From positions 27,429 through 91,428 of the forward strand of contig VGJV01000003.1 in assembly GCA_016867315.1 (NCBI GenBank): a stretch of DNA of 64,000 nt, in the 5' to 3' direction. This stretch comes from Candidatus Liptonbacteria bacterium. Lineage in GTDB: Bacteria; Patescibacteriota; Minisyncoccia; UBA6257; 2-01-FULL-56-20. A model generated the notes under the pieces. The model searched no databases and had not been told where the DNA came from. It worked only from the letters and a program-made list of their open reading frames with translations. This document shows, piece by piece, positions 42,321 through 62,882 of the stretch. Position 1 is the first letter of the stretch, and the number at the start of each line of letters is the position of its first letter. The translations under genes were made by a program, and so were the position numbers.

Positions 42321-42321
42321 A

Positions 42322-44427: not shown

Positions 44428-45920
44428 TTTTTCAAATGAAGCTCGAGCTTATAAAAAAGCTCCCCACCGAAGGAGCAATAGTGTTTGTGATAAAAGAAGG
44501 AGTCTCTCTAAAGACACATCCATTTTTGAAGTTTCTCGGAGAGGAGGACAAAAAATATATCGAAACCGTCACGAATGCATCAGGTGCAAGTGGAATTTCT
44601 AATAAATTCTTGATTCTTCCCTCGGGAAGAAAAACTTTAATTATAAGTGTTCCTGCAAAAGATAAATTTACCGGCCGCAAAGCGATTCTCTCCGCCCGGC
44701 GGGTGATCGTGGCCGCTCGAAGTGAAAAACTGGCACAGATTGTCGTATTGCTCGAAGACTTTCAAGCCCGAACATCCCCGCAAGAAACCGCGACGATGCT
44801 TGGTACTCAACTGGAGATCGCCAATTTTGAATTTGTAGCATATAAAACTGCCCCTAAGGAAGGATGGAATTTTGTAGAAGAAGTCGGAGTATTCTCAAAG
44901 TACAGCCTAGAATCCTTACGCAAAGCGCTCGAAGCGGGAAAGGTAGTTGGAGAAGAAGTAAATGCGGCGCGAGTCCTCTCAAATACTCCTGGGGGAGATA
45001 TGACTCCTGCTGGCCTCGCTGAAGCAGCGCTCCAAGCCGGTAAAAAATCCGGGTTTAAAGTGACAATTTTGGATGAAAAAGAAATTACCAAACTCGGCAT
45101 GGGCGGCGTCTTGGGAGTCTCTAAAGGTTCCGTGGAAAAACCCCGCTTCATCGTCATAGAATACCTTCGCGGCAAAAAATCCGAAAAGCCGGTAGTGATA
45201 GTGGGAAAAGGAGTTACTTTCGATACTGGAGGATTGAACCTAAAACCCACGCAAGCGATCTATGAAATGCATATGGATATGTCCGGTGGAGCCGCCACAA
45301 TCCATATTCTCGGAGCACTCGCCCGGCTCAATGTAAAGAAAAACGTGATTGGGTTGGTACCTGCAGTAGAAAACATGCCCTCCGGTTCAAGTTTCCGCCC
45401 CGGAGACCTCTTAAAATCCATGTCGGGCAAAACCATTGAGGTAACGAATACTGATGCGGAAGGCCGAGTGATCCTCGCGGATGCCTTGGAATATGCCAAG
45501 CGTTACAATCCTCGTTTAGTAGTAGACATAGCTACGCTCACGGGCGCTGCGCTCGTAGCGCTGGGTCAACGAGCTTCTGCCATATTTTCGACCAGTGCTC
45601 CGGTAGAGCGTTCTCTTCGCGCAATTGGAGAAGAAACTGGAGATTTCGTCTGGCCGCTGCCCTTGTGGGAAGAATACGAAGAAGATATTAAAGGAATGTT
45701 CGGAGATTTTGCGAACTCCGGCAAGAGCCGCTGGGGAGGCGCGATTGAAGGCGCCGTATTCCTTCGCCAATTTATTCGCGACAAAGAAGGGAATGATGCA
45801 TATCCGTGGGTGCACCTCGATATTGCTCCCCGTATGACCTCGGTAGACGGAGAATTTCTGGCCAAGGGCGCCGCGGCTCCTTCCGTCGCCCTCCTCACGC
45901 AATTTTTGCGTGAATACTAA
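44400..45920 (+). CDS. pepA: leucyl aminopeptidase (M17 family)
   Basis: M17 signature NTDAEGRVILADAL, plus VGKGVTFDTGG and MDMSGGAA. The likely start is the M near 44430. Confidence 0.85.
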   Translation: MDEFGGQTIIFQMKLELIKKLPTEGAIVFVIKEGVSLKTHPFLKFLGEEDKKYIETVTNASGASGISNKFLILPSGRKTLIISVPAKDKFTGRKAILSARRVIVAARSEKLAQIVVLLEDFQARTSPQETATMLGTQLEIANFEFVAYKTAPKEGWNFVEEVGVFSKYSLESLRKALEAGKVVGEEVNAARVLSNTPGGDMTPAGLAEAALQAGKKSGFKVTILDEKEITKLGMGGVLGVSKGSVEKPRFIVIEYLRGKKSEKPVVIVGKGVTFDTGGLNLKPTQAIYEMHMDMSGGAATIHILGALARLNVKKNVIGLVPAVENMPSGSSFRPGDLLKSMSGKTIEVTNTDAEGRVILADALEYAKRYNPRLVVDIATLTGAALVALGQRASAIFSTSAPVERSLRAIGEETGDFVWPLPLWEEYEEDIKGMFGDFANSGKSRWGGAIEGAVFLRQFIRDKEGNDAYPWVHLDIAPRMTSVDGEFLAKGAAAPSVALLTQFLREY

Positions 45921-45941: not shown

Positions 45942-47609
45942 ATGAGCTCGACTCGTTCCTGCAGGCAATGCAGGAACGCATTCTCTGTGGATGCTTCAGA
46001 CCTCTCATTTTATGAAAAAATGGGAGTTCCCGTGCCGGCACTCTGCCCCGAGTGCCGATTTCGACGTCGTGCCGGGTTTCGAAATGAACGCACGCTCTAC
46101 AAGCAAAACTGCAAACTTTGCGCCAAGTCGGTAATCACCATGTACAACCCAAAATCACCGCTTGTTGTGTACTGTAATGACTGCTGGGCTTCAGATAAAT
46201 GGGATCCGAGCGCATATGCGATGGAGTATGATCCTTCCCGCCCTTTCTTCGATCAGTTAAAAGAACTCTCTCAAAAAGTTCCTAAATCCGGAACGTATTC
46301 GAGTGCATGGGCAGGTCCGAATGTAAGAAGTGAATACACTAACTTCGCGGGGAGTAATAAAGACTGTTATCTTTGCTTTAATTCAGGCCCGGAAAATGAA
46401 AATTGCGCCTATTCCAGAGGCATCATGCGTTCGCGGGATACATTCGATACCTACTACGGTTATGAAACCGAAAGGGGATATGAGGGAATAAATATGCAAA
46501 AAAGCTCAGGTGTTGCCTGGGGACAAAATATCCTCGAATGTCTCGATTCCTGGTTTCTTTTGAACTGTGCGAGCGTCCAAAATTGCTTTGGATGTGTGAA
46601 TCTGCGTCATAAATCGAATGCCTTCCTAAATGAGCCTCTTGAAAAAGAAGAGTGGAAACGAAAAATTTTAGAAATTACCGGTAGCTATCAAAGAATTGAA
46701 GAATTTAAAAAACAATTTCAGGAACATGCACTCAAATTTCCGCGGCGAGAAAATAATAATTTGAAATCAGTTGATTGCACGGGGGATTACATATTCGAAT
46801 CCAAAAACTGTCATGACTCATTTGAGGTGGGTAATGGAGAAAATTTGAAATATGTGTTCTCTGTAAAGTTCACCAAAGACAGTTATGACTTAATTGGACA
46901 CGGGCGGAATTCTGAACTGCTGCTTGAGGGAGTGGGAGCCGGAGCAAGTCAGCGCATCATAGCCGGTTGGTGGATAGAAAATGCCCATGATGTGGAATAT
47001 TCTTTTGCGACGCGCGCGAGCGAATATTGTTTCGGCTGCGACGGAATAAAAGGAGGGAAGTATCGGATATTAAATAAGCAGTATTCAGAGGAAGAATATA
47101 AGAAACTTCGCGCGCATATTATAGAAGAATTGAAAAACATCGGAGAATATGGGCTCTTTTTTCCGCCCTCGCTCTCGTTTTTCGCATATAACGAAACCAT
47201 CGGACAGGACAATCTGCCGCTCTCCAAAGAAGAAGCTATCCGACAAGGCTTCCGCTGGGAGGAAAATCTTCCCGCCACGAAGGGTCAGGAAACACTAAAA
47301 GCGGAACAACTCCCGGATCACATTAAGGATGTGCAGGATTCGATTTTGAGCGAAATTCTCGCTTGTATTTCCTGCGGTCGGAATTATCGGCTTATCAAGC
47401 CGGAGCTAGAAGCATATCGACGAGCACTAATTCCCATTCCAAGAAAGTGCTTCAATTGTCGGCACCTAGATAGACTGACTCGCCGGGGCCCGTTTAAATT
47501 ATTCGACCGCACCTGCGCAAAGTGTAATAAAGCAATCCGAACCAACTACGCTCCAGAACGACCCGAAATTGTGTATTGCGAGACTTGTTACCAAAATGAA
47601 GTTATATAG
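45942..47609 (+). CDS. Cys-rich paralog family member 3 (555 aa)
   Basis: SCRQCRNAFSVDASDLSFYEKMGVPVPALCPECRFRRR, a second ribbon CKLCAKSV…CNDC, the KWDPSAY..EYDPSRPFFDQLKEL block, CFGCVNLRHK, ILNKQYSEEEYKK, FFPPSLSFFAYNETI and C-terminal CISCGRNYRL…CFNCRH…IVYCETCYQNE. Confidence 0.8.
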   Translation: MSSTRSCRQCRNAFSVDASDLSFYEKMGVPVPALCPECRFRRRAGFRNERTLYKQNCKLCAKSVITMYNPKSPLVVYCNDCWASDKWDPSAYAMEYDPSRPFFDQLKELSQKVPKSGTYSSAWAGPNVRSEYTNFAGSNKDCYLCFNSGPENENCAYSRGIMRSRDTFDTYYGYETERGYEGINMQKSSGVAWGQNILECLDSWFLLNCASVQNCFGCVNLRHKSNAFLNEPLEKEEWKRKILEITGSYQRIEEFKKQFQEHALKFPRRENNNLKSVDCTGDYIFESKNCHDSFEVGNGENLKYVFSVKFTKDSYDLIGHGRNSELLLEGVGAGASQRIIAGWWIENAHDVEYSFATRASEYCFGCDGIKGGKYRILNKQYSEEEYKKLRAHIIEELKNIGEYGLFFPPSLSFFAYNETIGQDNLPLSKEEAIRQGFRWEENLPATKGQETLKAEQLPDHIKDVQDSILSEILACISCGRNYRLIKPELEAYRRALIPIPRKCFNCRHLDRLTRRGPFKLFDRTCAKCNKAIRTNYAPERPEIVYCETCYQNEVI

Positions 47610-47681: not shown

Positions 47682-49361
47682 ATGGGACAGAAAATAGAAA
47701 TGAATGCTGAGATAAGAAATTGCAGAAGCTGCAAGCAAGACTTCACGATTGAACCGGACGATTTCACGTTTTATTCAAAAGTTGGAGTGCCCGCGCCGCA
47801 CGATTGTCCGGTGTGTCGTCAGCGTCGGAGGATGATTTTTCGAAATTTCAAGACGCTCTACAAGCGAAACTCCGATCGTTCTTCAAAGCCGATGATCTCG
47901 ATGTATGCTCCGCACGCATCATACAAGGTTTTCACCCACGATGAATGGTGGGCGGACAATTGGGATGCTCGGCAATATGGCCGAGACTTTGATTTTTCGA
48001 GACCATTTTTTGATCAATTTAAAGAACTTCTCCTTGCGGTGCCAAAGATGAATTTGGTAAGTGTTCAAAGTGAAAATTGTGAATACTCTAATTTTGCGTG
48101 GAAGAGCAAAAGCTGCTATCTCGTCTTCGGCTGCGTAGATAACGACACGTGCGCATACGGTCACATTGTTTGGGAATCGAAAGATTCTGTAGATAATCTC
48201 TATCTTTATAAATCTGAGCTTTGTTTTGAATGTGTGGATTGTTTATGGAGCTACGGCTTACTCTGGTCTCAAGAATGCGAGAGTTGCAGCGAGAGTATTG
48301 GGCTTTTCGACTGCCGGAGCTGTACCAACTGCATAGGTTGCGTAGGTCTAAAACAAAAGTCCTACCACATATTCAATCAGCCGGTAAGTAAAGAAGAATA
48401 TGTAAAGTTTTTAGCCGAGCATCCGCTTACCGATCCAAAAACACTTCCATATATTCTGGAAAAACAGCGTGAATTGAGGCGTCAAATACCTCAACGTCAT
48501 TTTTTTGGCTCACATAATAATGCGGTATCAGGAAATCACATATACCATGCAAAAAATGTGCGCTATTCCTTCGACGTAAAGGGAGGAGAAAACTCTAAAT
48601 TTGCATATACGACCCGCAAAGTAGTAGATGGCTATGATGTCGCGTTCTCACCAGACATAGAACTCGCATATCAAGCGCTCACCTCGCGCGGGAACGGGAT
48701 CTACTTCGCGCATATGAATTACGAATGCAGTGATATCTATTATTCGGATAGCTGCCAAAATGTGCATAACGCGTTTGGCTGCGCGGGGCTCAAGGGCGGA
48801 GAATATTTGATTTTGAATAAACAGTATTCAAAAGAAGAATACGAAACACTAGAAGAGAAGATCGTCGAGCATATGAAGAAAACAGGGGAGTGGGGAGAGT
48901 TCTTCCCGGCGACTCTTTCACCGTTCGCATATAACGAGTCCATCGCGCAGGAATATTTTCCACTAAGAAAGGAAGAAGTCCTCGCGTCGGGCTTTCGGTG
49001 GGAAGAAAATATTCCCCGCACTTCCGGACAGGAAACCATCTCTCATGATGCGCTTCCGAAAAATCCTGCCGAATTCGACGCAGATTCACTTTTAAAACAG
49101 GTTTTGAAGTGTGACAGTTGTGGTTACAATTTCCGTTTCACCGCCCAAGAAATTCCATTTTATAAACGATTAAATCTCCCCTTGCCCCGCAATTGTTTTA
49201 ACTGCCGTCACGAACGTCGCATGAAACAGCGAAATATACGTAAGCTATGGGATGGAAGCTGCGCGAAGTGCAATACAAAGTTTCAAACCTCCTACTCTCC
49301 GGAGCAGCAAAAGGAATTTAAAGTTTACTGCGACTCCTGCTATCTTCAAGAAATGGGTTAG
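47682..49361 (+). CDS. Cys-rich paralog family member 4 (559 aa)
   Basis: NCRSCKQDFTIEPDDFTFYSKVGVPAPHDCPVCRQRRR. The second N-terminal ribbon is degenerate (Cys lost). CIGCVGLKQKSYHIFNQPVSKEEY, LILNKQYSKEEYE, SPFAYNESIAQEYFPL and C-terminal CDSCGYNF…CFNCRH…KVYCDSCYLQE. Confidence 0.8.
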   Translation: MGQKIEMNAEIRNCRSCKQDFTIEPDDFTFYSKVGVPAPHDCPVCRQRRRMIFRNFKTLYKRNSDRSSKPMISMYAPHASYKVFTHDEWWADNWDARQYGRDFDFSRPFFDQFKELLLAVPKMNLVSVQSENCEYSNFAWKSKSCYLVFGCVDNDTCAYGHIVWESKDSVDNLYLYKSELCFECVDCLWSYGLLWSQECESCSESIGLFDCRSCTNCIGCVGLKQKSYHIFNQPVSKEEYVKFLAEHPLTDPKTLPYILEKQRELRRQIPQRHFFGSHNNAVSGNHIYHAKNVRYSFDVKGGENSKFAYTTRKVVDGYDVAFSPDIELAYQALTSRGNGIYFAHMNYECSDIYYSDSCQNVHNAFGCAGLKGGEYLILNKQYSKEEYETLEEKIVEHMKKTGEWGEFFPATLSPFAYNESIAQEYFPLRKEEVLASGFRWEENIPRTSGQETISHDALPKNPAEFDADSLLKQVLKCDSCGYNFRFTAQEIPFYKRLNLPLPRNCFNCRHERRMKQRNIRKLWDGSCAKCNTKFQTSYSPEQQKEFKVYCDSCYLQEMG

Positions 49362-49405: not shown

Positions 49406-51160
49406 ATGAATCTCATAATGAACAATCAAATAAAAAGCTGTCAAAACTGCAAAAAAGACTTTGTGATTGCCCCGGAGGACTTTCAATTTTACGAACGTAT
49501 AAAAGTTCCGGCGCCGACGTTCTGTCCCGATTGTCGTCTCCAAAGACGCATGGCTTTCAGGAACGAACGAAGTTTATATAAAAACATTTGCGCACTTTGC
49601 AAAAAACAGTTTGTTTCGATGTATTCGCCAGACAAACCCTTTATAGTCTACTGCAAAGAATGTTGGTATTCGGATAACTGGGATCCGCTGCAATATGGTC
49701 AGGATTATGATTGGGATAAACCTTTCTTCGAACAGTTTCGGGAATTGATGCTTAAAGTTCCCAGAATCGGGATCATGCACATTCGCAACAATATCAATGC
49801 CGATTATGCGAACTATATCTCCGCAAGCAAGAATATTTATCTTTCTCAGTCCGTTATAGAAGGCTCAGAAAATATTTACTACTCTCGAAGTATAGATCGA
49901 AGCAAAGAAATCTTTGATTGTTTTAATGTCAAAGATTCCGAACGATGCTATGAAAATGTGGATGGTGGGAGAAATTATCGCTCGAAATTTCTGGTACGAT
50001 CGCGGGATTGCATTGATTCCGCATTTCTTTTCGACTGCGTGAACTGTCAGAACTGCATAATGAGCGCGAATCTGCGCAATCGGCAATATGTAATCCGCGG
50101 GAAACAATATTCAAAAGAGGAATATGCCACAGCCTTGGAGAAAATCGAATTCGGTAAACAAAGCGAAATTGAAAAATTAAAACAGGAATTCGAAAATGTG
50201 ATGGAAAAAGCCCTGCATAAATTCGCTAATATCACCAAATCAGTAACCTCAACGGGAGATAATATCGATAATTCTAAAAATGCGGCTTACCTCTTTGACG
50301 CATATAACTGCGAGAATGTGCGGTACGCGGCTAGGGCAATAGGATGTAAAGACTCCTACGATATCATGGGAGGGGCAAATCTCGAACTTGTATATGAACA
50401 GATGGCTGGTGGTTACGGAAGCAGAAACTCCTTAGCGTTAAGTCATGGGGAAGTGACGCTTGAGAGTAACTACACAGACTGGTGTCAAAGTTCCTCAAAT
50501 CTTTTCGGTTGCATATCACTTCGAAAGAAACAGTATTGTATTTTGAATAAGCAATATTCAGAGAAGGAATATAAGGAGTTCTATCCAAAGATTATCGAGC
50601 ATATGAATACAATGCCTTTCGAAGATAGAATGGGAAGAATGTACCGTTACGGAGAATTTTTCCCAATTGAGATTAGCCCATTCGCTTATAACGAGACGAT
50701 CGCAGAAGAATATTTCCTCCTCGCGAAGGAAGAAATTATGAAAAAAGGTTATACGTGGAGAGAACTCGATCCACTTCCGTACGTGCCCACTGTAAAGGGA
50801 AAAGATTTACCCGACGATATTGCGAATGTGGAAAATTCAGCAACCAAAGAATTGATAGAATGCGAAAATTGCAAACGAGTGTATCGAATAGTACAGCCGG
50901 AACTTGAATTTCTTCGGCGCGAACAAATTCCCTTACCGAGAACTTGCCAAGAATGCCGACACGCAAAAAGATTGACTCTCCGCAATCCCCTTAAATTATG
51001 GTCTCGAAAATGTATGTGTGACTATAAGGTATGGAAGAACACTGCGAAGCATGTCCATCATCCGGAAGATCGATGTTCAAACGAATTCGAAACGAGTTAT
51101 TCTCCAGAAAGGCCGGAGGTAATATATTGTGAGCAATGCTATCAAGCAGAAATTAGCTAG
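49406..51160 (+). CDS. Cys-rich paralog family member 5 (584 aa)
   Basis: SCQNCKKDFVIAPEDFQFYERIKVPAPTFCPDCRLQRR, CALCKKQF…CKECW, CQNCIMSANLRNRQYVIRGKQYSKEEY, CILNKQYSEKEYKE, SPFAYNETIAEEYF and C-terminal CENCKRVYRI…CQECRH…VIYCEQCYQAE. Confidence 0.8.
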   Translation: MNLIMNNQIKSCQNCKKDFVIAPEDFQFYERIKVPAPTFCPDCRLQRRMAFRNERSLYKNICALCKKQFVSMYSPDKPFIVYCKECWYSDNWDPLQYGQDYDWDKPFFEQFRELMLKVPRIGIMHIRNNINADYANYISASKNIYLSQSVIEGSENIYYSRSIDRSKEIFDCFNVKDSERCYENVDGGRNYRSKFLVRSRDCIDSAFLFDCVNCQNCIMSANLRNRQYVIRGKQYSKEEYATALEKIEFGKQSEIEKLKQEFENVMEKALHKFANITKSVTSTGDNIDNSKNAAYLFDAYNCENVRYAARAIGCKDSYDIMGGANLELVYEQMAGGYGSRNSLALSHGEVTLESNYTDWCQSSSNLFGCISLRKKQYCILNKQYSEKEYKEFYPKIIEHMNTMPFEDRMGRMYRYGEFFPIEISPFAYNETIAEEYFLLAKEEIMKKGYTWRELDPLPYVPTVKGKDLPDDIANVENSATKELIECENCKRVYRIVQPELEFLRREQIPLPRTCQECRHAKRLTLRNPLKLWSRKCMCDYKVWKNTAKHVHHPEDRCSNEFETSYSPERPEVIYCEQCYQAEIS

Positions 51161-51521: not shown

Positions 51522-53309
51522 ATGGAGAACAGAATTTCAGAAAATCGGGATTGCCAAAATTGCAAACAGCAATTCACGATCGCTCCGGAAGATTTCGCAT
51601 TCTACGAAAAAATCCAGGTTCCACCGCCCACGTGGTGTCCGCGCTGCCGCAACATCCGACGGATGGCTTGGAGAGAAGAGGGCCATGCACTCTATCGGGA
51701 CACGTGCAAGCTTTGCGGCAAAAATATTATCACCATTCATGCGCCGGGACCGTTTACGATATATTGCCGAGAATGTTACAGGTCGGATAAATGGGACCCG
51801 TTGAGTTATGGGAAAGAATACGATTTTAGCATGCCCTTTTTCGCTCAATACCGGAAACTCATGGAAGAAGTGCCTCGACCGGCCCTCACCGGAATAAATA
51901 TCGTAAACAGCGAATTTACGCACGGCTGCAAGGGCGTAAAAAACTGTTATTTCTGTTTCATGAGCTATTTTTCCGAAGACTCGCAGCATAGTTATTTACT
52001 TCTTCTCTCTCGCCACGCGTATGATTCATACGTAACTGATAACTCAGACCAAGTGTACGAAACTCTCCATTCGAACCGGCTTTATAAGGTCGCGTTTGGA
52101 TACTTTGCAGATGACTGCTTAGAGTCCACATTTTTATATGATTGCATAGGCTGTTCGGATTGCTTCGGTTGTGTAAATCTCCGCAAACAAAAATATTGCC
52201 TTTGGAATAAACAACTTTCAAAGGAGGAGTATCGAAAACAAAAAGAATATTGGGATCTTGGGAGTTTTACTCGGTTAGAGGAAGCAAAGAAGAAGTTTCG
52301 GGAATTATATCTCTCGCTTCCGCATAAATATGCGCATGTAGTAAGCAGCCAAAATGCCACCGGAGATATTATCAGAGATACAAAAGACTGTGAGAAATGT
52401 TTTTCCGCCCTTGATGGCGTGCAAAATTGCAAATATGTCTATGTGGGGGGATTGAATTTAAAAGATAGCTACGATGTGAGCGGAGGAGGGGATACTGCCT
52501 CTCTTCTCTACGAGATTCTTGGTACAACGGAAGCACAGCGCTGCTTTTTTGCGAACGGCAGTTCCGGTTCGCAGGATATTATGTATTGCGATTGGGTAAA
52601 TGATTCCTCTCACGTTCTTGGAAGTATTGCCTTGAAACATAAAAAGTATTGCATCTTGAATAAGCAATATGAGAAGGAGGAGTATGCCCAAATGAAGGCC
52701 AAAATAATCGAGCATATGCACTCGATGCCATATGTGGACAAAAAAGGACGAGTCTATAAATTTGGAGAATATTTTCCCACCGAGCTTTCCGCATATGGAT
52801 ATAATGAAACATTCGGATTCTTCTGGTACCCCAAAACCAAAGAAGAAGTTCTAGAAGAAGGATGGAACTGGCATGATCCTCAGAAAAAGTCTTATGAGGT
52901 GACATTGAGACTCGAGGACATCCCTGACCATATTAGAGACATTCCCGATTCCATACTCAAAGAAACCATTGAGTGCGCACATGGAGGAGCGTGCAACGAA
53001 CAATGTACCACCGCGTTTCGGATCACTCCCGAGGAACTCGCCTTTTATAGAGACATGCGGATTGCCCTGCCTAGACTTTGCCCCAATTGCAGAAACTTCC
53101 AAAGAATTCACTGGCGAAATGGCTATGATTTATTTAAACGGAAATGCATGTGCGTCGGCATGCAGAATAAGGATGAGAATAAGTATAAAAATACTGCATC
53201 TCACTTTCATGGAGATGGCTTTTGCCCCAACGAATTCGAAACCACCTTCTCTCCTAAGCAACCGGAAATAATATATTGCGAAGCATGCTACCGCCAAGAA
53301 TTTATATAG
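51522..53309 (+). CDS. Cys-rich paralog family member 6 (595 aa)
   Basis: DCQNCKQQFTIAPEDFAFYEKIQVPPPTWCPRCRNIRR, CKLCGKNI…CRECY, CFGCVNLRKQKYCLWNKQLSKEEY, CILNKQYEKEEYAQ, and C-terminal ECAHGGACNEQCTTAFRITPEELAFYRDMRIALPRLCPNCRNFQR…IIYCEACYRQE. It is most similar to member 7. Confidence 0.8.
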   Translation: MENRISENRDCQNCKQQFTIAPEDFAFYEKIQVPPPTWCPRCRNIRRMAWREEGHALYRDTCKLCGKNIITIHAPGPFTIYCRECYRSDKWDPLSYGKEYDFSMPFFAQYRKLMEEVPRPALTGINIVNSEFTHGCKGVKNCYFCFMSYFSEDSQHSYLLLLSRHAYDSYVTDNSDQVYETLHSNRLYKVAFGYFADDCLESTFLYDCIGCSDCFGCVNLRKQKYCLWNKQLSKEEYRKQKEYWDLGSFTRLEEAKKKFRELYLSLPHKYAHVVSSQNATGDIIRDTKDCEKCFSALDGVQNCKYVYVGGLNLKDSYDVSGGGDTASLLYEILGTTEAQRCFFANGSSGSQDIMYCDWVNDSSHVLGSIALKHKKYCILNKQYEKEEYAQMKAKIIEHMHSMPYVDKKGRVYKFGEYFPTELSAYGYNETFGFFWYPKTKEEVLEEGWNWHDPQKKSYEVTLRLEDIPDHIRDIPDSILKETIECAHGGACNEQCTTAFRITPEELAFYRDMRIALPRLCPNCRNFQRIHWRNGYDLFKRKCMCVGMQNKDENKYKNTASHFHGDGFCPNEFETTFSPKQPEIIYCEACYRQEFI

Positions 53310-53494: not shown

Positions 53495-55477
53495 GTGGCG
53501 ATACATAACATCAAACATCCCTACAAAAAGGTGGCTCCAACTGCCCCGTTGTGGCATAATTTGGAAAGCGCAGACGCGCAACCCAAAAAAATGGGCTTCG
53601 AACCAGAGAAAGACGTCATCTATTTCGGCCGTACCGATTTCCGGAACACCAACCGGCTTTTTGGCATCAAAAGGAATGATCGCCGTCAACATGTCTACGT
53701 TGTCGGTAAAACCGGTACCGGTAAAAGTGTTCTTTTGAATAATATGATTGTGCAGGATATGGCGAACGGCGAAGGACTTGCCGTCGTCGATCCGCACGGA
53801 GAATTGGTGGAAGGGATCTTGGAAAAAGTCCCCGAGGATCGCATTGATGATGTAATTTATTTCAACCCGGCGGATATCGACTCTCATATTGGTTTTAATG
53901 TACTCGAACTTCCCGATCCGAAATACAAACACCTGGTGGCTTCGGGACTCATGGGCATTTTCACTAAGATTTGGGAGAATGTCTGGTCTGCAAGAATGGA
54001 ATATATCATGAATAACGCCATATTGGCGTTGTTGGATACTCCCGGTTCCACACTTTTAGGAATCACGAGAATTCTCGTAGACAAAGATTACCGACAGCAG
54101 ATCATTGCAAACATCAAAGACCCGGTGGTAAAGGCGTTCTGGGTTCATGAATATGAAACATGGCGTGACCAGTTCCGAAACGAAGCTATTGCTCCGATTC
54201 AAAACAAAGTAGGGCAGTTCCTTTCGACCGCACTCGTACGAAATATTGTGGGGCAGCAGCGGAGCACGATCGATATTTTCAATCTCATGAACGAAGGGAA
54301 AATATTTCTCATAAACGTCTCTAAGGGAAGAATCGGGGAAGATAACTCTGCGCTTTTGGGAGCCATGCTCATCACAAAGATGCAGCTTTCTGCAATGGAA
54401 CGTATCCGCGTACCCGAAGAAGAACGCGTGGATTTCTTCCTTTATGTCGACGAGTTTCAGAATTTTGCGACTGATTCATTTGCTGGGATATTGTCCGAAG
54501 CCAGAAAATATCGCTTGGATCTTATCCTCGCACATCAATACATAGGACAATTAGTAACTGATGTCTCGACTAAAGTGCGGGATGCGATCTTCGGAAACGT
54601 AGGAACGATGATCATCTTCCGTGTGGGCGCGACCGATGCGGAATTTTTGGAAAAAGAATTTGAGCCGGAATTCACTCCTCAAGATATAGTAAACCTCCCG
54701 AACTACGCGATTTACTTGAAGCTTATGGTGGATGGAGTAACCTCAAGACCTTTTTCAGCCTCGACACTTCCTCCTTTTAAGGTGGCGACCTCCGAAATGA
54801 CGAAGGAAATGATTATTAAAAACTCGCAAAAGCGATATGCGAGGCCCAGGGGAGTGGTAGAGGAAGAAATAAACCGATGGAGTGGCGTAATGACTACCGC
54901 AGAAGGTGCCCCCACGCTTCCCACGCAAAGTAAGGAGGGCGCATATCTCGCGACGTGCTCTTCCTGCGGTAAAACCACTACGGTTCCATTTGCTCCGGAT
55001 CCATCACGCCCAATTTACTGTAAAGACTGTCTGAATCGCGTGAAGGCCGGAGAGGTATTGCCAGTAAAACTCATGCCAAGATCGAAAAAAGTTCGGGATT
55101 CTTCGAAAGATGCGCTCGCAGCGGTAGGTATCGAATTTGCAGTAGAACCCAAGAGCGAAGAAGAGGTAGAAGAAGAAACCACTCCTGAGGCAGAAACCGA
55201 AGAGGCTGCCGCAACCACTCCTGCTGAAATTACAAAAGCCGAACAAGAAACAGAAAAATCGGAAGAAGCAGCGGAATCTACCCCCGAAGAAACCGCTCCG
55301 AAAGCCGAAGAGGCCAAACCGCAAACGAAAGGAATTTCGCTTTCTGAACTCAAACCCCCGAAGAAGACTCCAAAAATGAAAGAGCGCACTGCTCCGGAAA
55401 TAGATGTGGAGGAATTACGCAAATCCATCGCGGCTTCCCTTGATCAAATTTTAAGCAAAGACGAAGAGAAAAAATGA
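53495..55477 (+). CDS. soluble TrwB/TraD/VirD4-type P-loop ATPase, copy 2, with a C-terminal zinc ribbon and an acidic low-complexity tail
   Basis: Paralog of 38239..39705 (LFGIKRNDRRQHVYVVGKTGTGKSVLL…VVDPHGELVEG; Walker B FFLYVDEFQNF; LILAHQYIGQL). The extra C-terminus carries CSSCGKTTTVPFAPDPSRPIYCKDC, then an E/T/A/P-rich tail. Confidence 0.7.
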   Translation: MAIHNIKHPYKKVAPTAPLWHNLESADAQPKKMGFEPEKDVIYFGRTDFRNTNRLFGIKRNDRRQHVYVVGKTGTGKSVLLNNMIVQDMANGEGLAVVDPHGELVEGILEKVPEDRIDDVIYFNPADIDSHIGFNVLELPDPKYKHLVASGLMGIFTKIWENVWSARMEYIMNNAILALLDTPGSTLLGITRILVDKDYRQQIIANIKDPVVKAFWVHEYETWRDQFRNEAIAPIQNKVGQFLSTALVRNIVGQQRSTIDIFNLMNEGKIFLINVSKGRIGEDNSALLGAMLITKMQLSAMERIRVPEEERVDFFLYVDEFQNFATDSFAGILSEARKYRLDLILAHQYIGQLVTDVSTKVRDAIFGNVGTMIIFRVGATDAEFLEKEFEPEFTPQDIVNLPNYAIYLKLMVDGVTSRPFSASTLPPFKVATSEMTKEMIIKNSQKRYARPRGVVEEEINRWSGVMTTAEGAPTLPTQSKEGAYLATCSSCGKTTTVPFAPDPSRPIYCKDCLNRVKAGEVLPVKLMPRSKKVRDSSKDALAAVGIEFAVEPKSEEEVEEETTPEAETEEAAATTPAEITKAEQETEKSEEAAESTPEETAPKAEEAKPQTKGISLSELKPPKKTPKMKERTAPEIDVEELRKSIAASLDQILSKDEEKK

Positions 55478-56148
55478 GATTTGATATTCTCTCGATTTTC
55501 CCCGACATATTTTCCTCGTATGTAAGCGAGTCGCTCTTTGCGCGGGCAATAAAGAAGAGTCTTCTCCAAATCAAAATTCATGACCTCCGCAAATGGAGTA
55601 GAGAGCGACATCGCAAGGTAGATGATCGTCCTTTCGGAGGCGGACCGGGAATGGTATTCCAGGTGGAACCAATACATCGAGCCGTCGAAGCGATTCAGCG
55701 CCAAACAAAAAAATTAAAGCGTCGGCGGATAATTCTTTTTTCCACTCGAGGTAAAAAGCTGGATGCAAACACTGCGAAGCGTCTTTCGAAATATGATCAG
55801 CTTACGCTCATCTGCGGCCGCTATGAGGGAGTGGACGAAAGAGTGGCCGACCACATTGCCGATGAAGAAATCTCAATAGGGGATTATGTACTCTCCGGAG
55901 GAGAGCTTCCTGCGCTGGTACTCATGGAGGCGATAAGCCGTTTCAAAAAAGGATTTCTTGGCACCCGCGAGTCTCTCGAAGAAATAAAAGGTTTCTATCC
56001 CGTATACACCCGTCCCGCCTCATTTACTCCTAAATCCGGCAAGCGCTCCTGGAAAGTACCCGAGGTGCTCCTCCGTGGTAACCATGCCGCAATCGATGTC
56101 TGGCGCCGAAAATACGGCGAAGATGCAAGTAGGAGAATACACGCTTAA
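55474..56148 (+). CDS. trmD: tRNA (guanine37-N1)-methyltransferase TrmD
   Basis: MRFDILSIFPDIF…, GGGPGMV and the SPOUT knot region. Confidence 0.85.
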   Translation: MRFDILSIFPDIFSSYVSESLFARAIKKSLLQIKIHDLRKWSRERHRKVDDRPFGGGPGMVFQVEPIHRAVEAIQRQTKKLKRRRIILFSTRGKKLDANTAKRLSKYDQLTLICGRYEGVDERVADHIADEEISIGDYVLSGGELPALVLMEAISRFKKGFLGTRESLEEIKGFYPVYTRPASFTPKSGKRSWKVPEVLLRGNHAAIDVWRRKYGEDASRRIHA

Positions 56149-57553
56149 GCTTCTGCTTGGTTTTCTGACTGGAGCTGCGGTGGCTGCTTTTGGCATACCC
56201 ACCGAAGGAATAGTAATCGGAGGACTTCTTGCGATAATCTGGGTTCAGTATTTCAAACAAATAAAATTAGTGATGCTCTGCCTCGCCGGCGGAGCTTTTA
56301 TTTTTGGGATTCTTTATTTCCATCTCTACGCGCAGGGGAGTGTAACATTCTTGCGCCTCCCTCAAGATTCTCCGGCAACTTTCGAAGGATTGGTGGTTGA
56401 AGAGCCGAGAAACGCGAATCGCTTTGCTAGATTTACCATAGAGCTTCAGGAACCTTATCGAGGAAAAATAGGAGTCATAGATGAAGCTTCGGGAATTCAA
56501 TACGGAGATGTACTTCGTCTAGAAGGCAGAATCCGGATTGAAAATGGAGAGATTATAGCTAAATTTCCCAAAACAGAACGTCTCGCGCGCAATAAAGGAC
56601 ATTGGCTGAAGGAACAGCTTCTCGCAGTAAAGAGGGGAGTAATCCAAAGTTTTGAGCGCGCGCTTCCGCCCGACGAGGCCGCTCTTCTCTCCGGCATCAC
56701 GCTCGGCGCCCGAAGCTCCTTTTCTCCAAAACTTAAAGAGGATATGGCAATTTCAGGGACTATTCACATTGTCGCAGTCTCAGGCTACAACATAAGCATT
56801 CTCGCGATTGTATTGGGGAGCGCTGCGGCCCTTTTTATGAGAAGGCGCATCGCAATTTGGGTCGCAGTGATAGGAATATTGCTCTTCGTGGGAATCGTAG
56901 GAAGCGAAGCTTCGGTGGTGCGAGCAGCCATTATGGGAATACTCGGCCTCCTCGCGGAAGGCACGGGGCGACCGAACAATCAGGCCTATGCCATTGCGCT
57001 TGCCGCTTCACTCATGGTGGCATGGGACCCCACTATCATCCGCAACGACCTGGGTTTTATGCTTTCCTTTTTAAGCCTCTTAGGAGTGACATACCTCTCT
57101 CCCGCGCTTCAATCGCTTTGGAGAAATGCAAAAGATAAAGGTTTTTTCGCCTGGAAGGAAAACTTGGATACCACGCTCGGAGCGCAACTGGGCGTCTTGC
57201 CGGTGCTCCTCCTCACCTTCGGGAGCGTCTCCGCCACTTCGCTCCTCGCGAATATTCTAATAATTCCCTTAATTCCCATTACTATGGGAGTGGGATTTCT
57301 TTTAGGAATTATCCAATGGCTTTCTCCCTTGCTTGCGTTCCCGGTTACAGAAATAGCAAGATTGCTTACCGGCTATGAAATATGGGTAATTCAATTTTTT
57401 GCGGATACGGCGATCCCAATCGGAAATTTCTTTGCCTACCCGGTAGTCATAATCGCATATTATCTCTTCTTCGCTGCGTTTATCGCATATCGGAATAAAA
57501 AAGGTGAAATAAAACTCACCGAACCCTCTGCAATAAAAAATCTATGGTCCTAA
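56123..57553 (+). CDS. comEC: ComEC/Rec2 family competence membrane protein (membrane channel portion)
   Basis: DUF4131-like N-terminus plus the ComEC core (LLSGITLGARS…, ISGTIHIVAVSGYNISIL) and multiple TM helices. The ORF track starts at 56075, and M 56123 (MQVGEY…) is the likelier start. Confidence 0.7.
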   Translation: MQVGEYTLKLLLGFLTGAAVAAFGIPTEGIVIGGLLAIIWVQYFKQIKLVMLCLAGGAFIFGILYFHLYAQGSVTFLRLPQDSPATFEGLVVEEPRNANRFARFTIELQEPYRGKIGVIDEASGIQYGDVLRLEGRIRIENGEIIAKFPKTERLARNKGHWLKEQLLAVKRGVIQSFERALPPDEAALLSGITLGARSSFSPKLKEDMAISGTIHIVAVSGYNISILAIVLGSAAALFMRRRIAIWVAVIGILLFVGIVGSEASVVRAAIMGILGLLAEGTGRPNNQAYAIALAASLMVAWDPTIIRNDLGFMLSFLSLLGVTYLSPALQSLWRNAKDKGFFAWKENLDTTLGAQLGVLPVLLLTFGSVSATSLLANILIIPLIPITMGVGFLLGIIQWLSPLLAFPVTEIARLLTGYEIWVIQFFADTAIPIGNFFAYPVVIIAYYLFFAAFIAYRNKKGEIKLTEPSAIKNLWS

Positions 57554-58431
57554 AAACCAATCTCCAAAAATTTCTGCTCCCGAGTATCGCCTCACTCCTT
57601 ATACTGAATGTGTTCGTATGGCACTCCGTATGGAAGGGGCTCCCGGATCAAAATCCTTCGCTCCATTTCCTGGATGTAGGTCAGGGAGATGCCACCCTCC
57701 TCAAGCTTCCGGGCAATATATCAATTTTGACAGATGCAGGTCCAGACCGAAAGGTAGTGCAGGCAGTAAATGAACTATTGGGTCTAGATCGGCGCTATAT
57801 TGATATAGGAATCATCACTCATCCACAGCGAGACCATTATGGAGGATTTATCGATCTACTCAAGCACTTCAAATTTGGAGCAATAATTACGAATGGGCGC
57901 AATGCGGATACGGGAAAAGAAGCGTGGCGGGAATTTTTAGCCACCATACAGTCTGAAAATATCCCGCATATCGTACTGCGGGCAGGAGATCGAATTCGCT
58001 ATGCGAATAATAAAATAGATTTTTTATCTCCCGGACCCAATCTTTTGAAAAGCAAGGAGTTAAATGACACCAGCTTTGTAAATCGAATCCAAACTCCGGC
58101 TTTTTCCGCGCTCCTCACGGGAGATATAGGCATAAAAGTGGAACAATTTCTCTTAAAATCGGGGATCTCTCTCAAAACCGACATCTTAAAAGTCGCGCAC
58201 CATGGGTCTAAGTTTTCTTCAAACAAAGTGTTTTTAAATGCGGCGAATCCACAGATTGCACTGATTGGAGTGGGCAAAAATTCATACGGCCATCCCACAA
58301 ATGAAGTACTGAGCAGACTGAGAGCTGCCTCAGTAGGGGCGGTTCTCCGAACCGATGAGCGAGGCACAGTGAGCATTATCCCGCAAGGCGAGAAGCTTCT
58401 CATTTTCACACACCGCGCCAAAGGAGAGTAG
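57544..58431 (+). CDS. MBL-fold metallo-hydrolase corresponding to the ComEC C-terminal beta-lactamase-like domain, encoded as a separate overlapping ORF
   Basis: HxHxDH-like motif (THPQRDHYGG) and VAHHGSKFSS typical of ComEC's lactamase domain. It overlaps the ComEC membrane ORF by 10 nt in another frame. Confidence 0.65.
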   Translation: MVLKTNLQKFLLPSIASLLILNVFVWHSVWKGLPDQNPSLHFLDVGQGDATLLKLPGNISILTDAGPDRKVVQAVNELLGLDRRYIDIGIITHPQRDHYGGFIDLLKHFKFGAIITNGRNADTGKEAWREFLATIQSENIPHIVLRAGDRIRYANNKIDFLSPGPNLLKSKELNDTSFVNRIQTPAFSALLTGDIGIKVEQFLLKSGISLKTDILKVAHHGSKFSSNKVFLNAANPQIALIGVGKNSYGHPTNEVLSRLRAASVGAVLRTDERGTVSIIPQGEKLLIFTHRAKGE

Positions 58432-61103: not shown

Positions 61104-62882
61104 ATGAACCCAGAAACAAAAAATTGTCAGGCCTGCAAAAATCCGTTCACGATCGAGCCGGAAGATTTGATATTTTACGAGAAAATCAAAGTACCACCTC
61201 CCACATTCTGTTGGCGATGCCGCATGCAAAGACGAGATAACTGGAGAAATGAGCGTTTGCTCTATAAGAGAAAATGTAATGTCCCAGGACATAGTGAAGA
61301 TATTATTTCCACGTTTGCTCCGGATGTGCCATGGGTGGTGTATGACCAAAAGGAATGGTGGAGCGATTCATGGAATTCGCTTGCGTATGGAAGAGAATAT
61401 AACTTCTCTAAACCATTTTTCTCCCAATTTAACGAGCTACTCCATAAAGTGCCGATTCCTGCTGTAGAGAATGAGAATCCGGTAAACAGCGAATACTGTA
61501 ATGCGGCCGCGGGCAACAAAAACTGCTATCTGTGCTTCGCTGCCGGATGGAACGAAAATGTAGCTTACTCAAACAAAATCGGGACAAGTAAGGATTCTCT
61601 TGATTGCTACATGGCTTCAAAAGTTGAACTTGGTTATGAGAATGTAAACTGCCACGATTCGTATCGGTTACTGTGGAGCGTGAACTCCAAAAACTGCCGC
61701 GATTCGCACTTTCTTTATAACTGCCGGAATTGTTCGAATTGCTTCGGGTGTGCAAATCTCGTCTCAAAGTCCTACCACATTTGGAACCAACCGTATTCTA
61801 AAGACGAGTACTTCGTGAAACTCACTGCACTCGACCTCTCCACACGAGAGAGAATTGAGGGACTCAAAGAAAAATTTTATAAAGAGATTGTTGCGAATAT
61901 GGTTCATAAATACGCGAGTATTCTCAACTCTTCAAACTGCACAGGCGACAACATTAATAATTCAAAAAATGTGGAAGTTTCATTTGATGTACTGACAGGA
62001 AGTGAAGATTCAAAGTTTCTCCAGCATTGCATGGAACTAAAAGACGCTTACGACAACATGGGGGCTTATAGATACAACCTTTCGTATGAAAATGTAAACG
62101 TGAATGTAGGCAATAATAATATTGCCACGATTGCGACCTATAACGCTCGCGCCAATCAATATTCGTATCACTGTCACGGTTGCAGCAATATTTTCGGGTG
62201 TATCGGCCTTCGCAGTAAAGAACATTGCATTCTGAACCGCCAGTATTCCAAAGAGGAATATGAACAACTGGTACCCCAGATCATAAAACACATGAACGAA
62301 ATGCCGTATGTAGATGCCGCCGGAAGGAAATACGGTTATGGAGAATTTTTTCCTGCGGAGATTTCTCCGTGGGCATATAACGAAACAATCGCGCAGGAAT
62401 ATTTTCCACTAAGCGAATCCGAAGCTCAAGCTAAAGGATTCCGCTGGAAAAAATCCGAAGGAAAGCATTACAACGTCACCATCGCTGCAGATAAAATTCC
62501 CGACCGAATCGCGGATGCACAGGATTCAATAGTAAATGAGGTAATCGAATGTGCGCATAAAGGTATCTGCAATGAACAATGCACCACCGCTTTTAAACTC
62601 ATCGACGCAGAGCTTCAATTTTATCGAAAGCTGAATCTTCCCATCCCGAATCTTTGTCCGAATTGCCGCCACTATGCACGTCTCAAGCAAAGAAATCCGC
62701 TCATGCTATGGAAAAGAAAATGTCGCTGCGCAGGCACTGCTTCCGATAACGAAGTCTATCACAATACCACCAAACACTTCCACGAAGCAGGGGAATGTCC
62801 CAATGAATTTGAGTCGAGCTACGCCCCCGAAAGACCAGAACTTATCTACTGCGAACAATGCTATCAAGCAGAAGTGAATTAA
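61104..62882 (+). CDS. Cys-rich paralog family member 7 (592 aa), located between ftsW and murG
   Basis: MNPETKNCQACKNPFTIEPEDLIFYEKIKVPPPTFCWRCRMQRR, CSNCFGCANLVSKSYHIWNQPYSKDEY, CILNRQYSKEEYEQ, SPWAYNETIAQEYFPL and C-terminal ECAHKGICNEQCTTAFKLIDAELQFYRKLNLPIPNLCPNCRH…LIYCEQCYQAE. Confidence 0.8.
   Translation: MNPETKNCQACKNPFTIEPEDLIFYEKIKVPPPTFCWRCRMQRRDNWRNERLLYKRKCNVPGHSEDIISTFAPDVPWVVYDQKEWWSDSWNSLAYGREYNFSKPFFSQFNELLHKVPIPAVENENPVNSEYCNAAAGNKNCYLCFAAGWNENVAYSNKIGTSKDSLDCYMASKVELGYENVNCHDSYRLLWSVNSKNCRDSHFLYNCRNCSNCFGCANLVSKSYHIWNQPYSKDEYFVKLTALDLSTRERIEGLKEKFYKEIVANMVHKYASILNSSNCTGDNINNSKNVEVSFDVLTGSEDSKFLQHCMELKDAYDNMGAYRYNLSYENVNVNVGNNNIATIATYNARANQYSYHCHGCSNIFGCIGLRSKEHCILNRQYSKEEYEQLVPQIIKHMNEMPYVDAAGRKYGYGEFFPAEISPWAYNETIAQEYFPLSESEAQAKGFRWKKSEGKHYNVTIAADKIPDRIADAQDSIVNEVIECAHKGICNEQCTTAFKLIDAELQFYRKLNLPIPNLCPNCRHYARLKQRNPLMLWKRKCRCAGTASDNEVYHNTTKHFHEAGECPNEFESSYAPERPELIYCEQCYQAEVN

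Follow-up and report, generated by a model that had tools for sequence, protein, structure and literature searches.

A stretch of 64,000 nucleotides from a Candidatus Liptonbacteria contig (the window) encodes two related ATPases, here called copy 1 and copy 2, together with a family of array proteins that carry cysteine-rich ribbons. Copy 2 ends in a cysteine-rich extension of its own, which the initial annotation took for a zinc ribbon of the same type as those of the array proteins, followed by an acidic tail; it saw in this likeness a common binding partner or a domain exchanged between the two. The locus thus raises the questions of what the extension is, how it relates to the array ribbons, and what it might do for an ATPase. 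Coordinates of all features are collected in Table 1.

Table 1. Features of the window discussed in the text, in order of position.
Feature	Position	Strand	Evidence or remark
DUF8128-like membrane protein, one N-terminal transmembrane segment, upstream of copy 1	36287..37642	+	PF26449 on L001 homolog
Small membrane protein, 171 aa, between DUF8128-like gene and copy 1	37679..38194	+	synteny, hydropathy
ATPase copy 1, 488 aa, without ribbon or long tail	38239..39705	+	Pfam, motif search, alignment
x24 ribbon (zf_Tbcl-like), example copy	40575..40694	+	PF13451
x24 ribbons, 14 copies, ~120 nt each	starts 40575, 42000, 42325, 43723, 45948, 47352, 47709, 49098, 49427, 50849, 51540, 52986, 61113, 62562		
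Array paralog 1, C-terminal half-ribbon variant (C..FET.Y.P..PEIIYCE.CY)	42228..42311	+	HMM E 1.4e-9
Array paralog 2, N-terminal x17 ribbon (zf_Tbcl_2-like)	42475..42573	+	HMM E 2e-15
Array paralog 3, N-terminal x17 ribbon	46098..46196	+	ATPase-ribbon HMM E 1.3e-3
Array paralog 3, C-terminal x17 ribbon	47502..47600	+	ATPase-ribbon HMM E 8e-5
Array paralog 4, N-terminal x17 position, all four Cys lost: NSDRSSKPMISMYAPHASYKVFTHDEW	47859..47957	+	E 0.016
Array paralog 4, C-terminal ribbon (x19 variant)	49248..49352	+	PF23477 19 bits
Array paralog 5, N-terminal x17 ribbon	49577..49675	+	ATPase-ribbon HMM E 1.8e-3
Array paralog 5, C-terminal half-ribbon variant	51068..51151	+	HMM
Array paralog 6, N-terminal ribbon (x16 variant)	51693..51788	+	motif and HMM
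Array paralog 6, C-terminal half-ribbon variant	53217..53300	+	HMM
ATPase copy 2, ORF	53495..55477	+	660 aa from GTG 53495 (mechanical ORF start)
ATPase copy 2, likely start ATG 53591	53591..55477	+	628 aa
Copy 2, TrwB/VirD4-like P-loop ATPase core and all-alpha domain	53591..54883	+	Pfam, AF2, Foldseek
Copy 2, flexible linker, core to finger	54884..54937	+	AF2 residues 437-448, pLDDT <50
Copy 2, treble-clef zinc finger domain (zf_Tbcl_2 / CxxC-x17-CxxC)	54938..55060	+	curated cut-offs, AF2; four Cys in 54956..55030
Copy 2, basic segment (PVKLMPRSKKVRDSSK) and conserved L-x-x-x-G-I-E-F motif, short helix	55061..55138	+	conservation, AF2 helix 504-511
Copy 2, acidic E/T/A/P/K-rich disordered spacer	55139..55327	+	AF2 pLDDT 32-41
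Copy 2, conserved SLSELKP motif	55334..55360	+	conservation
Copy 2, conserved C-terminal amphipathic helix (IDVEELRKSIAASLDQILSK..., VDVEELRKSI..SL)	55394..55474	+	AF2 helix 606-627, pLDDT 73-92
trmD	55474..56148	+	PF01746 E 2e-44; start overlaps copy 2 stop (ATGA)
ComEC competence channel	56075..57553	+	profile match
Separate metallo-beta-lactamase (MBL) ORF	57544..58431	+	profile match
Array paralog 7, N-terminal x17 position, degenerate cysteines	61263..61367	+	HMM E 0.0075
Array paralog 7, C-terminal half-ribbon variant	62790..62873	+	HMM

Results

Copy 2 is a soluble ATPase of the coupling-protein type

Because Met33 of the mechanical ORF is invariant in the 115 homologs compared, its ATG is the likely true start of copy 2, and residue numbers of the structural model (for instance 450-490 for the finger) count from it. 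A public collection holds a protein 100% identical to copy 2, assigned PF10412 and PF23477. The core, with GKTGTGKS as Walker A and LYVDEFQ as Walker B, matched PF10412 at 58 bits and also PF02534 and PF12696; PF01580 stayed under its cut-off at 21 bits, and the best score against the NCBIfam TraD/VirD4 equivalogs was 43-44 bits, short of their cut-offs of 250-650. The AF2 model gave the core a pLDDT of 80-95, and Foldseek searches with it returned TrwB (1e9s, E 2e-12) as the best structural match, along with Cag-beta, DotL and HerA. No transmembrane segment was detected in copy 1 or copy 2 when a Kyte-Doolittle 19-residue mean of at least 1.6 was required; copy 2 is a soluble TrwB/VirD4-like P-loop ATPase without a membrane anchor.

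The P-loop core and all-alpha domain are common to copy 2 and the type IV coupling proteins (TrwB of R388, VirD4, TraD, DotL), but copy 2 has no N-terminal transmembrane domain, and inspection of all ORF translations of the window revealed no type IV secretion (VirB4 etc.) or relaxase genes. Its extension, a zinc finger followed by short motifs, likewise had no counterpart in the Pfam, NCBIfam and solved-structure matches obtained. Throughout the phylum, a genome of the Patescibacteria contains about two VirD4-like genes (PMC12102498); of 5,713 of them only 148 are close to virB4, and they have possibly been exapted (PMC12102498).

Copy 1 is 45% identical to copy 2 over 415 aa, the homology stopping just before the extension, and contains no CxxC...CxxC motif, which bears out the earlier statement that it lacks both ribbon and tail. 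The DUF8128-like gene keeps its position upstream of copy 1 in other loci. Its product matches the N-terminal part of phrog_5156, the C-terminal part of which is matched by both ATPases; it probably represents the membrane portion, now separate, of a coupling-protein-like unit that has been split, and may supply the anchor.

The finger of copy 2 is a canonical CxxC-x17-CxxC domain

The cysteines of the extension lie in CSSCGKTTTVPFAPDPSRPIYCKDC (ORF residues 488-512), a CxxC-x17-CxxC motif; the ribbon reported for copy 2 is therefore real, with a spacer of exactly 17 residues in place of the 16 originally counted. It scored 53.5 bits against TIGR04272 (CxxC-x17-CxxC; curated cut-off 36) and 50.2 bits against Pfam PF23477 (zf_Tbcl_2; curated cut-off 27), profile matches that are far above chance. 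AF2 predicts strands at residues 452-455 and 462-465 and a helix at 478-486, starting from the second CxxC, at a pLDDT of ~90, with disordered segments on both sides of the finger. Judged by its sequence, the region 450-490 is an ordinary, canonical member of the CxxC-x17-CxxC / zf_Tbcl_2 family, a four-cysteine treble clef of ~35 residues with predicted zinc binding. Two small Methanosarcina mazei proteins with this domain bind zinc as determined by ICP-MS (PMC12704099), and NCBI and JGI already name the homologs of copy 2 'CxxC-x17-CxxC domain-containing protein'. Among solved structures, a sequence search with the finger profile met nothing beyond generic CxxC knuckles, none of them better than E 0.06. 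In the literature we found no published ligand or function for the CxxC-x17-CxxC family and nothing relevant on PF13451, PF23477, zf_Tbcl or DUF8128, none of which is mentioned in the CPR protein-family paper.

Of the best 120 copy 2 homologs 117 have the finger, as do 76 of 80 species-level orthologs (95%), and F499, P501, P506 and Y508 are invariant in addition to the cysteines. Far from being special to the present genome, the fusion of ATPase and finger is ancestral in this ortholog group of Patescibacteria (Parcubacteria-type), nearly all of whose members have it.

In the family as a whole, 6702 cluster representatives carry the finger. The members found are mostly small proteins with 2-5 fingers and basic RGG/Lys-rich segments; among the best 150 of the 6702, 128 had two fingers, 112 RGG-like motifs and 102 K/R-rich C-termini. 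Copy 2 has the exact motif, the exact spacing and the predicted treble-clef topology of the family, but presents them as a single finger on a 430-residue ATPase, with an acidic spacer after it. Since the two-finger small proteins likewise end in an amphipathic helix, fusion of such a free-standing protein was considered as the source of the extension; this was rejected, the terminal-helix HMM reaching E 1.9 at best among them.

Conserved motifs flank the acidic spacer

Copy 2 continues for 148 residues after the finger motif. The acidic low-complexity stretch described earlier is present (63-68 aa, 23 Glu, net charge -17), but the tail also holds three conserved motifs; its conserved part is a disordered spacer flanked by these short motifs, the terminal helix among them. 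G545, I546 and E547 of the LGIEF motif are invariant. The three motifs are absent from the rest of the window, and no tandem repeat was found at the DNA level under the low-complexity tail. The spacer of copy 2 is the most acidic of 105 orthologs, the median net charge in the family being +2; as far as these sequences tell, the acidity is lineage-specific and no family feature. Five copy 2 orthologs have dropped the finger and kept the tail motifs, including the terminal helix, and four of the five still have array genes nearby; the finger is thus accessory, and is not needed for the association of ATPase and array.

The array proteins carry two unrelated finger types

The array proteins consist of a beta-solenoid core, each end bearing an x17 finger paired with an unrelated x24 finger, which corrects the domain map of the family to two paired finger types per end. 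The x24 finger (zf_Tbcl, PF13451) sits directly beside the x17 finger; it too has four cysteines, and a helix follows its second CxxC. Its matches to PF13451 were weak (16-26 bits). The x17 copies of the window scored 19-23.8 bits against PF23477 (23.8 for the C-terminal ribbon of paralog 3), below the cut-off of 27, and about one third of array-protein orthologs have a precomputed PF23477 match; we read these x17 ribbons, from their sequences, as divergent zf_Tbcl_2 members.

In profile-profile alignments the finger of copy 2 matched the array x17 ribbons with hhalign probabilities of 95.7-96.7% (E 9e-9 to 4e-10), and a further run gave 96.4% (E 1.3e-9). When the columns were shuffled 200 times, those of the cysteines being left in place, the real score was never reached, so the likeness extends beyond cysteine spacing. 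The two HMMs hit each other's targets reciprocally, inside the window only, and the secondary structures predicted from both models are in the same register. Against the x24 ribbons, in contrast, the copy 2 finger showed no similarity by profile comparison, hhalign giving a probability of 6-8% over 7-8 aligned columns; the x24 HMM found no match in copy 2, nor the ATPase-finger HMM any x24 ribbon.

It was nonetheless the x24 ribbons with which the copy 2 finger had been equated: the pattern CxxC...FY.K..VP.P..CP.CR, credited with the same '...P...P..C..C' spacing, describes CxxC-x24-CxxC ribbons. Both are four-cysteine fingers with a helix predicted from the second CxxC. Their spacers differ (x17 versus x24, the latter with an inserted extra helix), as do their Pfam families (PF23477 versus PF13451), and in view of the missing cross-matches the literal claim, that copy 2 bears an x24-type ribbon exchanged with the arrays, is already refuted at the sequence-profile level; we give it practically no credence. 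A ribbon type common to ATPase and array does exist, namely the x17 ribbon.

Whether this common type points to an exchange is a separate matter. The array ribbons scored 30-34 against ribbons of free-standing small proteins and 34-39 against the copy 2 finger; on these scores they are equally distant from both, and give no pointer to a specific exchange. Since the copy 2 finger is canonical in a very large family and the array ribbons are equidistant, the proposed exchange is unsupported. A recent domain exchange was likewise rejected as a candidate, there being no mutual closeness of ATPase and array fingers above that to other family members. A shared ligand or shared machinery of copy 2 and the array is plausible. 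Taken together, these results partly confirm the initial observation and partly support its interpretation.

ATPase and array genes share a conserved neighbourhood

In 45 of 80 species loci the finger-bearing ATPase has array genes within 10 kb, and in 31 they are adjacent to it; nearly all array pieces (123/124) are co-directional with copy 2, and in 25 of the 31 loci having all three components the array genes stand between the two ATPases. Copy 1 is as tightly linked to the arrays as copy 2, despite having no finger, and 17 loci have copy 1 beside copy 2 and no array gene within 10 kb. The conserved neighbourhood supports some functional link between ATPase and array.

This synteny, together with a finger family common to both partners, raises the possibility that the finger is a handle for protein: the x17 fingers of copy 2 and of the array proteins would bind the same receptor or each other, the arrays being clients, adaptors or substrates. 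Type IV coupling proteins do use C-terminal extensions to bring in substrates and adaptors, as in TraD-TraM and DotL-DotN/IcmSW. We consider such a role possible but doubtful: the finger-less copy 1 is equally array-linked, finger-less copy 2 orthologs retain the array neighbourhood, the array fingers are no nearer to the copy 2 finger than to those of unrelated small proteins, and the 17 loci pair the ATPases with no array gene close by.

On its other side, the order copy 2-trmD-ComEC-MBL recurs among loci, and ComEC lies within 10 kb of copy 2 in 20 of 80 species loci. No promoter or terminator signals beyond chance were found around the copy 2 gene, and no RNA families in the window besides two tRNAs. 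IS elements occur nearby in one locus.

Membership of the ATPase in a HerA- or MADS-like system, either for defence against phages or belonging to a mobile element, with the finger sensing foreign nucleic acid, would be compatible with the phrog_5156 match (E 2e-61), PADLOC mad8 matches (E 1e-15), weak HerA matches and those IS elements. However, the library matches are confined to the generic ATPase core and the defence-library search found no partner defence genes. Moreover, copy 2 stands among housekeeping genes (SecDF, DnaK/J, trmD, ComEC, FtsW) in a synteny kept across many species, with about two copies per genome throughout the phylum, and we regard a defence role as very improbable.

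Discussion

The reading that we favour, with a probability of roughly one half, is that copy 2 is an orphan coupling-protein-like motor with a tethered finger for capture or recognition, most probably of nucleic acid. Going by homology to TrwB only, the motor would form a hexamer, in which case the ring would carry six fingers on flexible tethers, to serve as capture or recognition modules. Nucleic acid is the most probable ligand because the finger occurs elsewhere in RGG/Lys-rich two-finger proteins, the motor belongs to the DNA-translocase superfamily and ComEC often adjoins. The low-complexity stretch would be a spacer whose composition drifts, acidic by chance in the present lineage, and LGIEF, SLSELKP and the terminal helix may be separate docking elements, which would explain their persistence where the finger is lost. 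FtsK and SpoIIIE offer a parallel, combining a hexameric motor of the same superfamily with a flexible linker and a small C-terminal DNA-recognition gamma domain. The analogy is one of architecture only; there is no sequence kinship to copy 2 beyond the P-loop core, and their recognition domain is a winged helix, whereas that of copy 2 is a zinc finger.

Several observations weigh against the favoured reading. The RGG-rich basic context of other finger proteins is circumstantial, and copy 2's own strongly acidic tail would repel nucleic acid; the finger is accessory, five orthologs being without it; and ComEC is near in about a quarter to a third of loci, with trmD in between here.

The finger could instead be a structural or regulatory add-on, concerned with stability, ring assembly or metal or redox sensing and unrelated to the arrays, in a phylum where such fingers are simply common. 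With 6702 representatives the family is both very large and promiscuous, the finger has been lost repeatedly with the rest of the protein kept, and there is no excess similarity between ATPase and array. Yet retention in 95% of species, together with the invariant non-cysteine residues, argues for a selected function of the finger; a tether between disordered linkers is unlike a core-stabilising element, and the array synteny would be left unexplained. An add-on of this kind therefore appears unlikely to us.

Beyond a motor that captures nucleic acid through its finger, we advance as speculation a single Parcubacteria-wide machine, made up of two anchor-less ATPases, the DUF8128-like protein, the finger-capped array and often ComEC, in which one ligand would be recognised throughout by way of the shared x17 finger. 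Such a machine might, for example, take up and process DNA, or else handle clients, and would be an exaptation of conjugation coupling proteins.

The ribbon of copy 2 by itself adds little, being a catalogued domain in a catalogued architecture. The useful part is its context: VirD4-like pairs detached from secretion, the role of which was left open by a 2025 survey, flank a multi-copy, unannotated, finger-capped family in the window and in most related species, often beside ComEC. This is a concrete grouping, open to test, for a very widespread but unexplained set of genes in organisms believed to rely on DNA that they scavenge.

The second ATPase carries a predicted treble clef finger

The window reads, from its ORF translations, like a Parcubacteria-type Patescibacteria chromosome (UvrC, DnaB, DnaK/J, SecDF, trmD, ComEC and FtsW), and its top protein matches come from MAGs of Liptonbacteria, Jorgensenbacteria and Minisyncoccia. 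Its two ATPases, copy 1 and copy 2, are 45% identical across 415 residues, with homology ending immediately ahead of the C-terminal extension of copy 2; inspection of copy 1 found no CxxC pair, which bears out the initial annotation that it lacks the ribbon. Since the homologs of copy 2 begin at an invariant Met matching residue 33 of the called ORF, the ATG at 53591 is probably the true start, and the public gene call is probably 32 residues too long at its N-terminus. One public homolog is 100% identical to copy 2.

The ribbon motif reported for copy 2 is present, although its CxxC pairs are separated by 17 residues and not by the 16 that had been counted; 148 residues follow the motif. The segment is a catalogued domain, exceeding the cut-offs of two family models: NCBIfam TIGR04272 ("CxxC-x17-CxxC domain") with 53.5 bits, where 36 are required, and Pfam PF23477 ("zf_Tbcl_2, probable treble clef zinc finger") with 50.2 bits, where 27 are required. 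In an AlphaFold2 model made with 115 homologs, two strands (residues 452-455 and 462-465) are followed by a helix (478-486) that begins at the second CxxC; for this reason the predicted layout is that of a treble clef, not of a classical two-hairpin zinc ribbon. Sequence searches detected no solved structure for the finger. [quoted passage not shown]

Coordinates of features in the window and of finger-less orthologs (residues of copy 2 counted from Met33)
Feature	Position	Strand	Remark
Copy 2 ORF as called	53495..55477	+	660 aa from GTG
GTG start to invariant Met	53495..53590		GTG 96 nt 5' of Met invariant in all homologs
Copy 2, probable extent	53591..55477		628 aa
Copy 2 CxxC-x17-CxxC motif	54956..55030		encodes CSSCGKTTTVPFAPDPSRPIYCKDC
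ATPase core	residues 1-431		pLDDT 80-95
Linker	residues 437-448		disordered, pLDDT below 50
Finger	residues 450-490		pLDDT about 90
Copy 2 stop/trmD start	55474-55477		ATGA overlap
Competence/DUF4131 channel ORF	56075..57553		ComEC part
Metallo-beta-lactamase ORF	57544..58431		ComEC part; 10-nt overlap with channel ORF
DUF8128-like protein	36287..37642		single-pass membrane protein
Copy 1	38239..39705		488 aa
Array paralog 2	42184..44034		listed start runs into preceding paralog; true start probably near 42322
Apparent frameshift, paralog 2	43905..44036	+	near 3' end
Half-ribbon, paralog 2	43947..44030		HPCPNRFKTAHYEDSNAILYCEECYNSE
Finger positions without cysteines	47859..47957; 61263..61367; N-terminal region of 40566..42320		x17 type, N-terminal
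Interrupting ORF	44400..45920		506 aa, between paralogs 2 and 3
Modelled array paralog	45942..47609		pTM 0.85
Finger-less copy 2 orthologs, other genomes	L084:12184-13902; L059:5748-7508; L069:1649-3493; L030:385-2109; L072:4365-6122		finger cleanly lost

The core of copy 2 matches PF10412, PF02534 and PF12696, contains Walker A and B motifs, and is closest among solved structures to TrwB (E 2e-12), Cag-beta, DotL and HerA. It scores far under the NCBIfam coupling-protein cut-offs and has no transmembrane segment, and no secretion-system genes were found among the ORF translations of the window. Exaptation has been suggested as possible for detached VirD4-like genes of Patescibacteria (PMC12102498), a picture that both copies fit. 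The DUF8128-like protein and a small membrane protein are encoded upstream of copy 1. In the 824-position phage protein profile phrog_5156, positions 78-217 match the DUF8128-like protein and positions around 390-806 match both ATPases, so that the two halves form one polypeptide in some phage or prophage proteins; these matches suggest that here copy 1 and its upstream neighbour are a split, membrane-anchored, coupling-protein-like unit.

The finger is widespread, and separable from the tail

A precomputed PF23477 match was found in all 120 best homologs of copy 2, and the exact CxxC-x17-CxxC motif in 117 of them; several are named "CxxC-x17-CxxC domain-containing protein" or [quoted passage not shown] at NCBI or JGI. 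Public family models and annotations already cover both the ribbon and its attachment to this ATPase, whose novelty is therefore low. Among 80 orthologous loci, one genome per species, the finger is kept in 76 (95%) yet can be lost, the remaining four encoding full-length proteins without it; none of 48 neighbouring copy 1 orthologs has it. Some relatives bear a tandem pair. In fragments of copy 2-type ATPases from other lineages (P0254 and P0262) two fingers in tandem are separated by a Pro-rich spacer, so that members of the ATPase family differ in how many fingers they have.

The tail had been described as acidic and of low complexity. It is acidic in this protein, but it contains motifs conserved across orthologs: CL.K[IV]K.GE immediately past the finger, L..LGIEF about 30 residues beyond, [LM]SLSELKP, and a terminal helix, [IV]D[IV][DE]ELR[KR][SA]I..SL (predicted pLDDT 73-92). 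The spacer from LGIEF to the helix is disordered (median 89 residues). Across the family it has a median net charge of +2; that of copy 2 in the window carries -14, more acidic than any other among the 105 measured, and the acidity is therefore lineage-specific. No DNA tandem repeat underlies this spacer, and the window contains no further instance of the LGIEF, SLSELKP or helix motif. All three (LGIEF, SLSxL and the ELR helix) persist in five finger-less orthologs; tail motifs and finger are therefore separable modules.

The finger resembles one of two array finger types

The seven array paralogs, which encode cysteine-rich proteins, carry two finger types, paired, at both ends: a CxxC-x24-CxxC finger ("FY.K..VP.P..CP.CR"; weak matches to PF13451 zf_Tbcl, one copy exceeding the cut-off) and, directly after it, a CxxC-x17-CxxC finger ("C..C.K....Y.P..P..VYC..C"; 19-24 bits against PF23477, slightly below cut-off). 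Ungapped profiles were built from 109 ribbons of the ATPase and about 120 of each array type. In the hhalign comparison, the ATPase ribbon matched the N-terminal x17 finger with a probability of 95.7% (E 9e-9, 29 columns) and the C-terminal one with 96.7% (E 4e-10, 32 columns); a second run of the x17 comparison gave 96.4% (E 1.3e-9). When every column of the target profile except those of Cys, which stayed fixed, was permuted in 200 rounds, scores averaged 12.5-13 and peaked at 26-27, and no shuffle reached the real scores of 34 and 39; the x17 similarity thus goes beyond generic CxxC spacing. Searched against the window translated in six frames, the HMM of the ATPase ribbon matched array x17 ribbons only, and outside the array the x17 HMM matched the ATPase only (E 3e-5). 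An AlphaFold2 model of one paralog places the x17 fingers in the register of the ATPase finger: one strand lies just ahead of the first Cys and another six residues past it, and the second CxxC has a helix. The x24 fingers of the model have an extra helix.

A ribbon type shared by ATPase and array, as the initial annotation proposed, is therefore upheld for the x17 fingers. The ribbons it had named are those of x24 type, which aligned to the ATPase over 7-8 columns with a probability of 6-8% (E about 5e-3) and whose HMM did not match the ATPase in the six-frame translation; taken literally, that claim is scarcely credible.

When all 1.84 billion cluster representatives were searched by HMMER with the profile of the ATPase ribbon, 6,702 proteins matched at E ≤ 1e-3. 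The best 150 of these are mostly small (median 210 aa) and include proteins of Thermoplasmatota archaea; 128 have two fingers, 112 RGG-like segments and 102 K/R-rich C-termini. By hhalign, the ATPase finger scored 81 against the small-protein fingers, a set chosen with the ATPase profile, and the array fingers are nearly equidistant (30-34 against small proteins, 34-39 against the ATPase). ATPase and array proteins therefore each drew fingers from a large, promiscuous family. A special relation between the two at the domain level was rejected, and the earlier suggestion of a domain exchanged between them is not indicated.

Several array genes show irregularities of their own. The C-terminal half-ribbon of paralog 2 (array HMM E 7e-7 to 2e-6) lies in a different frame from the remaining ORF, reflecting either a pseudogene or a sequencing error. 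In three paralogs the N-terminal x17 position lacks cysteines and retains its flanking sequence (e.g. NSDRSSKPMISMYAPHASYKVFTHDEW), and these are likely zinc-free finger relics. The ORF that breaks the array contains, by eye, an NTDAEGR motif typical of M17 leucyl aminopeptidases.

Copy 2 often lies near array, copy 1 and ComEC genes

Within up to 10 kb either side of copy 2 in the 80 species loci, at least one array-family gene was found in 45 (immediately adjacent, under 600 nt, in 31), copy 1 in 48 and ComEC in 20; 39 of the 40 loci with full flanks had at least one of the three. Array genes lie between both ATPases in 25 of the 31 loci having all three components, and 123 of 124 array pieces run in the direction of copy 2. 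Array-centred loci agree in three of four cases, and one repeats the window's order array-copy 2-trmD-ComEC-metallo-beta-lactamase. By a rough estimate for a family that forms a few clusters and a genome smaller than 1 Mb, chance would give such proximity in a few percent of cases. Divergent finger copies appear to cap array proteins whose genes are syntenic with copy 2, and from this synteny a functional link between ATPase and array is plausible; that the finger is purely structural or regulatory, unconnected to the arrays, is unlikely, and a role in a defence system very improbable.

The stop/start overlap of copy 2 with trmD, a tRNA methyltransferase gene, suggests that the two are translationally coupled. 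The order copy 2-trmD-ComEC also occurs in several other species (L005, L009, L014, L015, L069 and L084). ComEC is split in the window, in agreement with the near-absence of the fused form from CPR bacteria (PMC6744442).

As modelled, copy 2 is a TrwB-like ATPase that lacks a membrane anchor and bears a canonical four-Cys treble clef, tethered between flexible segments; by homology this motor would be hexameric and would hold six tethered fingers around the ring. The family's RGG/Lys-rich context, the motor's DNA-translocase ancestry and the ComEC neighbourhood point weakly to nucleic acid as the most likely ligand, and spacer and terminal helix may dock copy 2 to a partner. We give this explanation as a whole about even odds (roughly 0.5); the identity of the finger is near certain. 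The main rival, in which ATPase and array proteins have the finger in common as a protein handle, is doubtful: copy 1 has no finger yet is equally linked to arrays, and arrays are retained at finger-less copy 2 orthologs (array-family genes nearby in four of five). The interest left lies in the conserved, uncharacterised set of genes that groups the ATPase pair with the array and ComEC.
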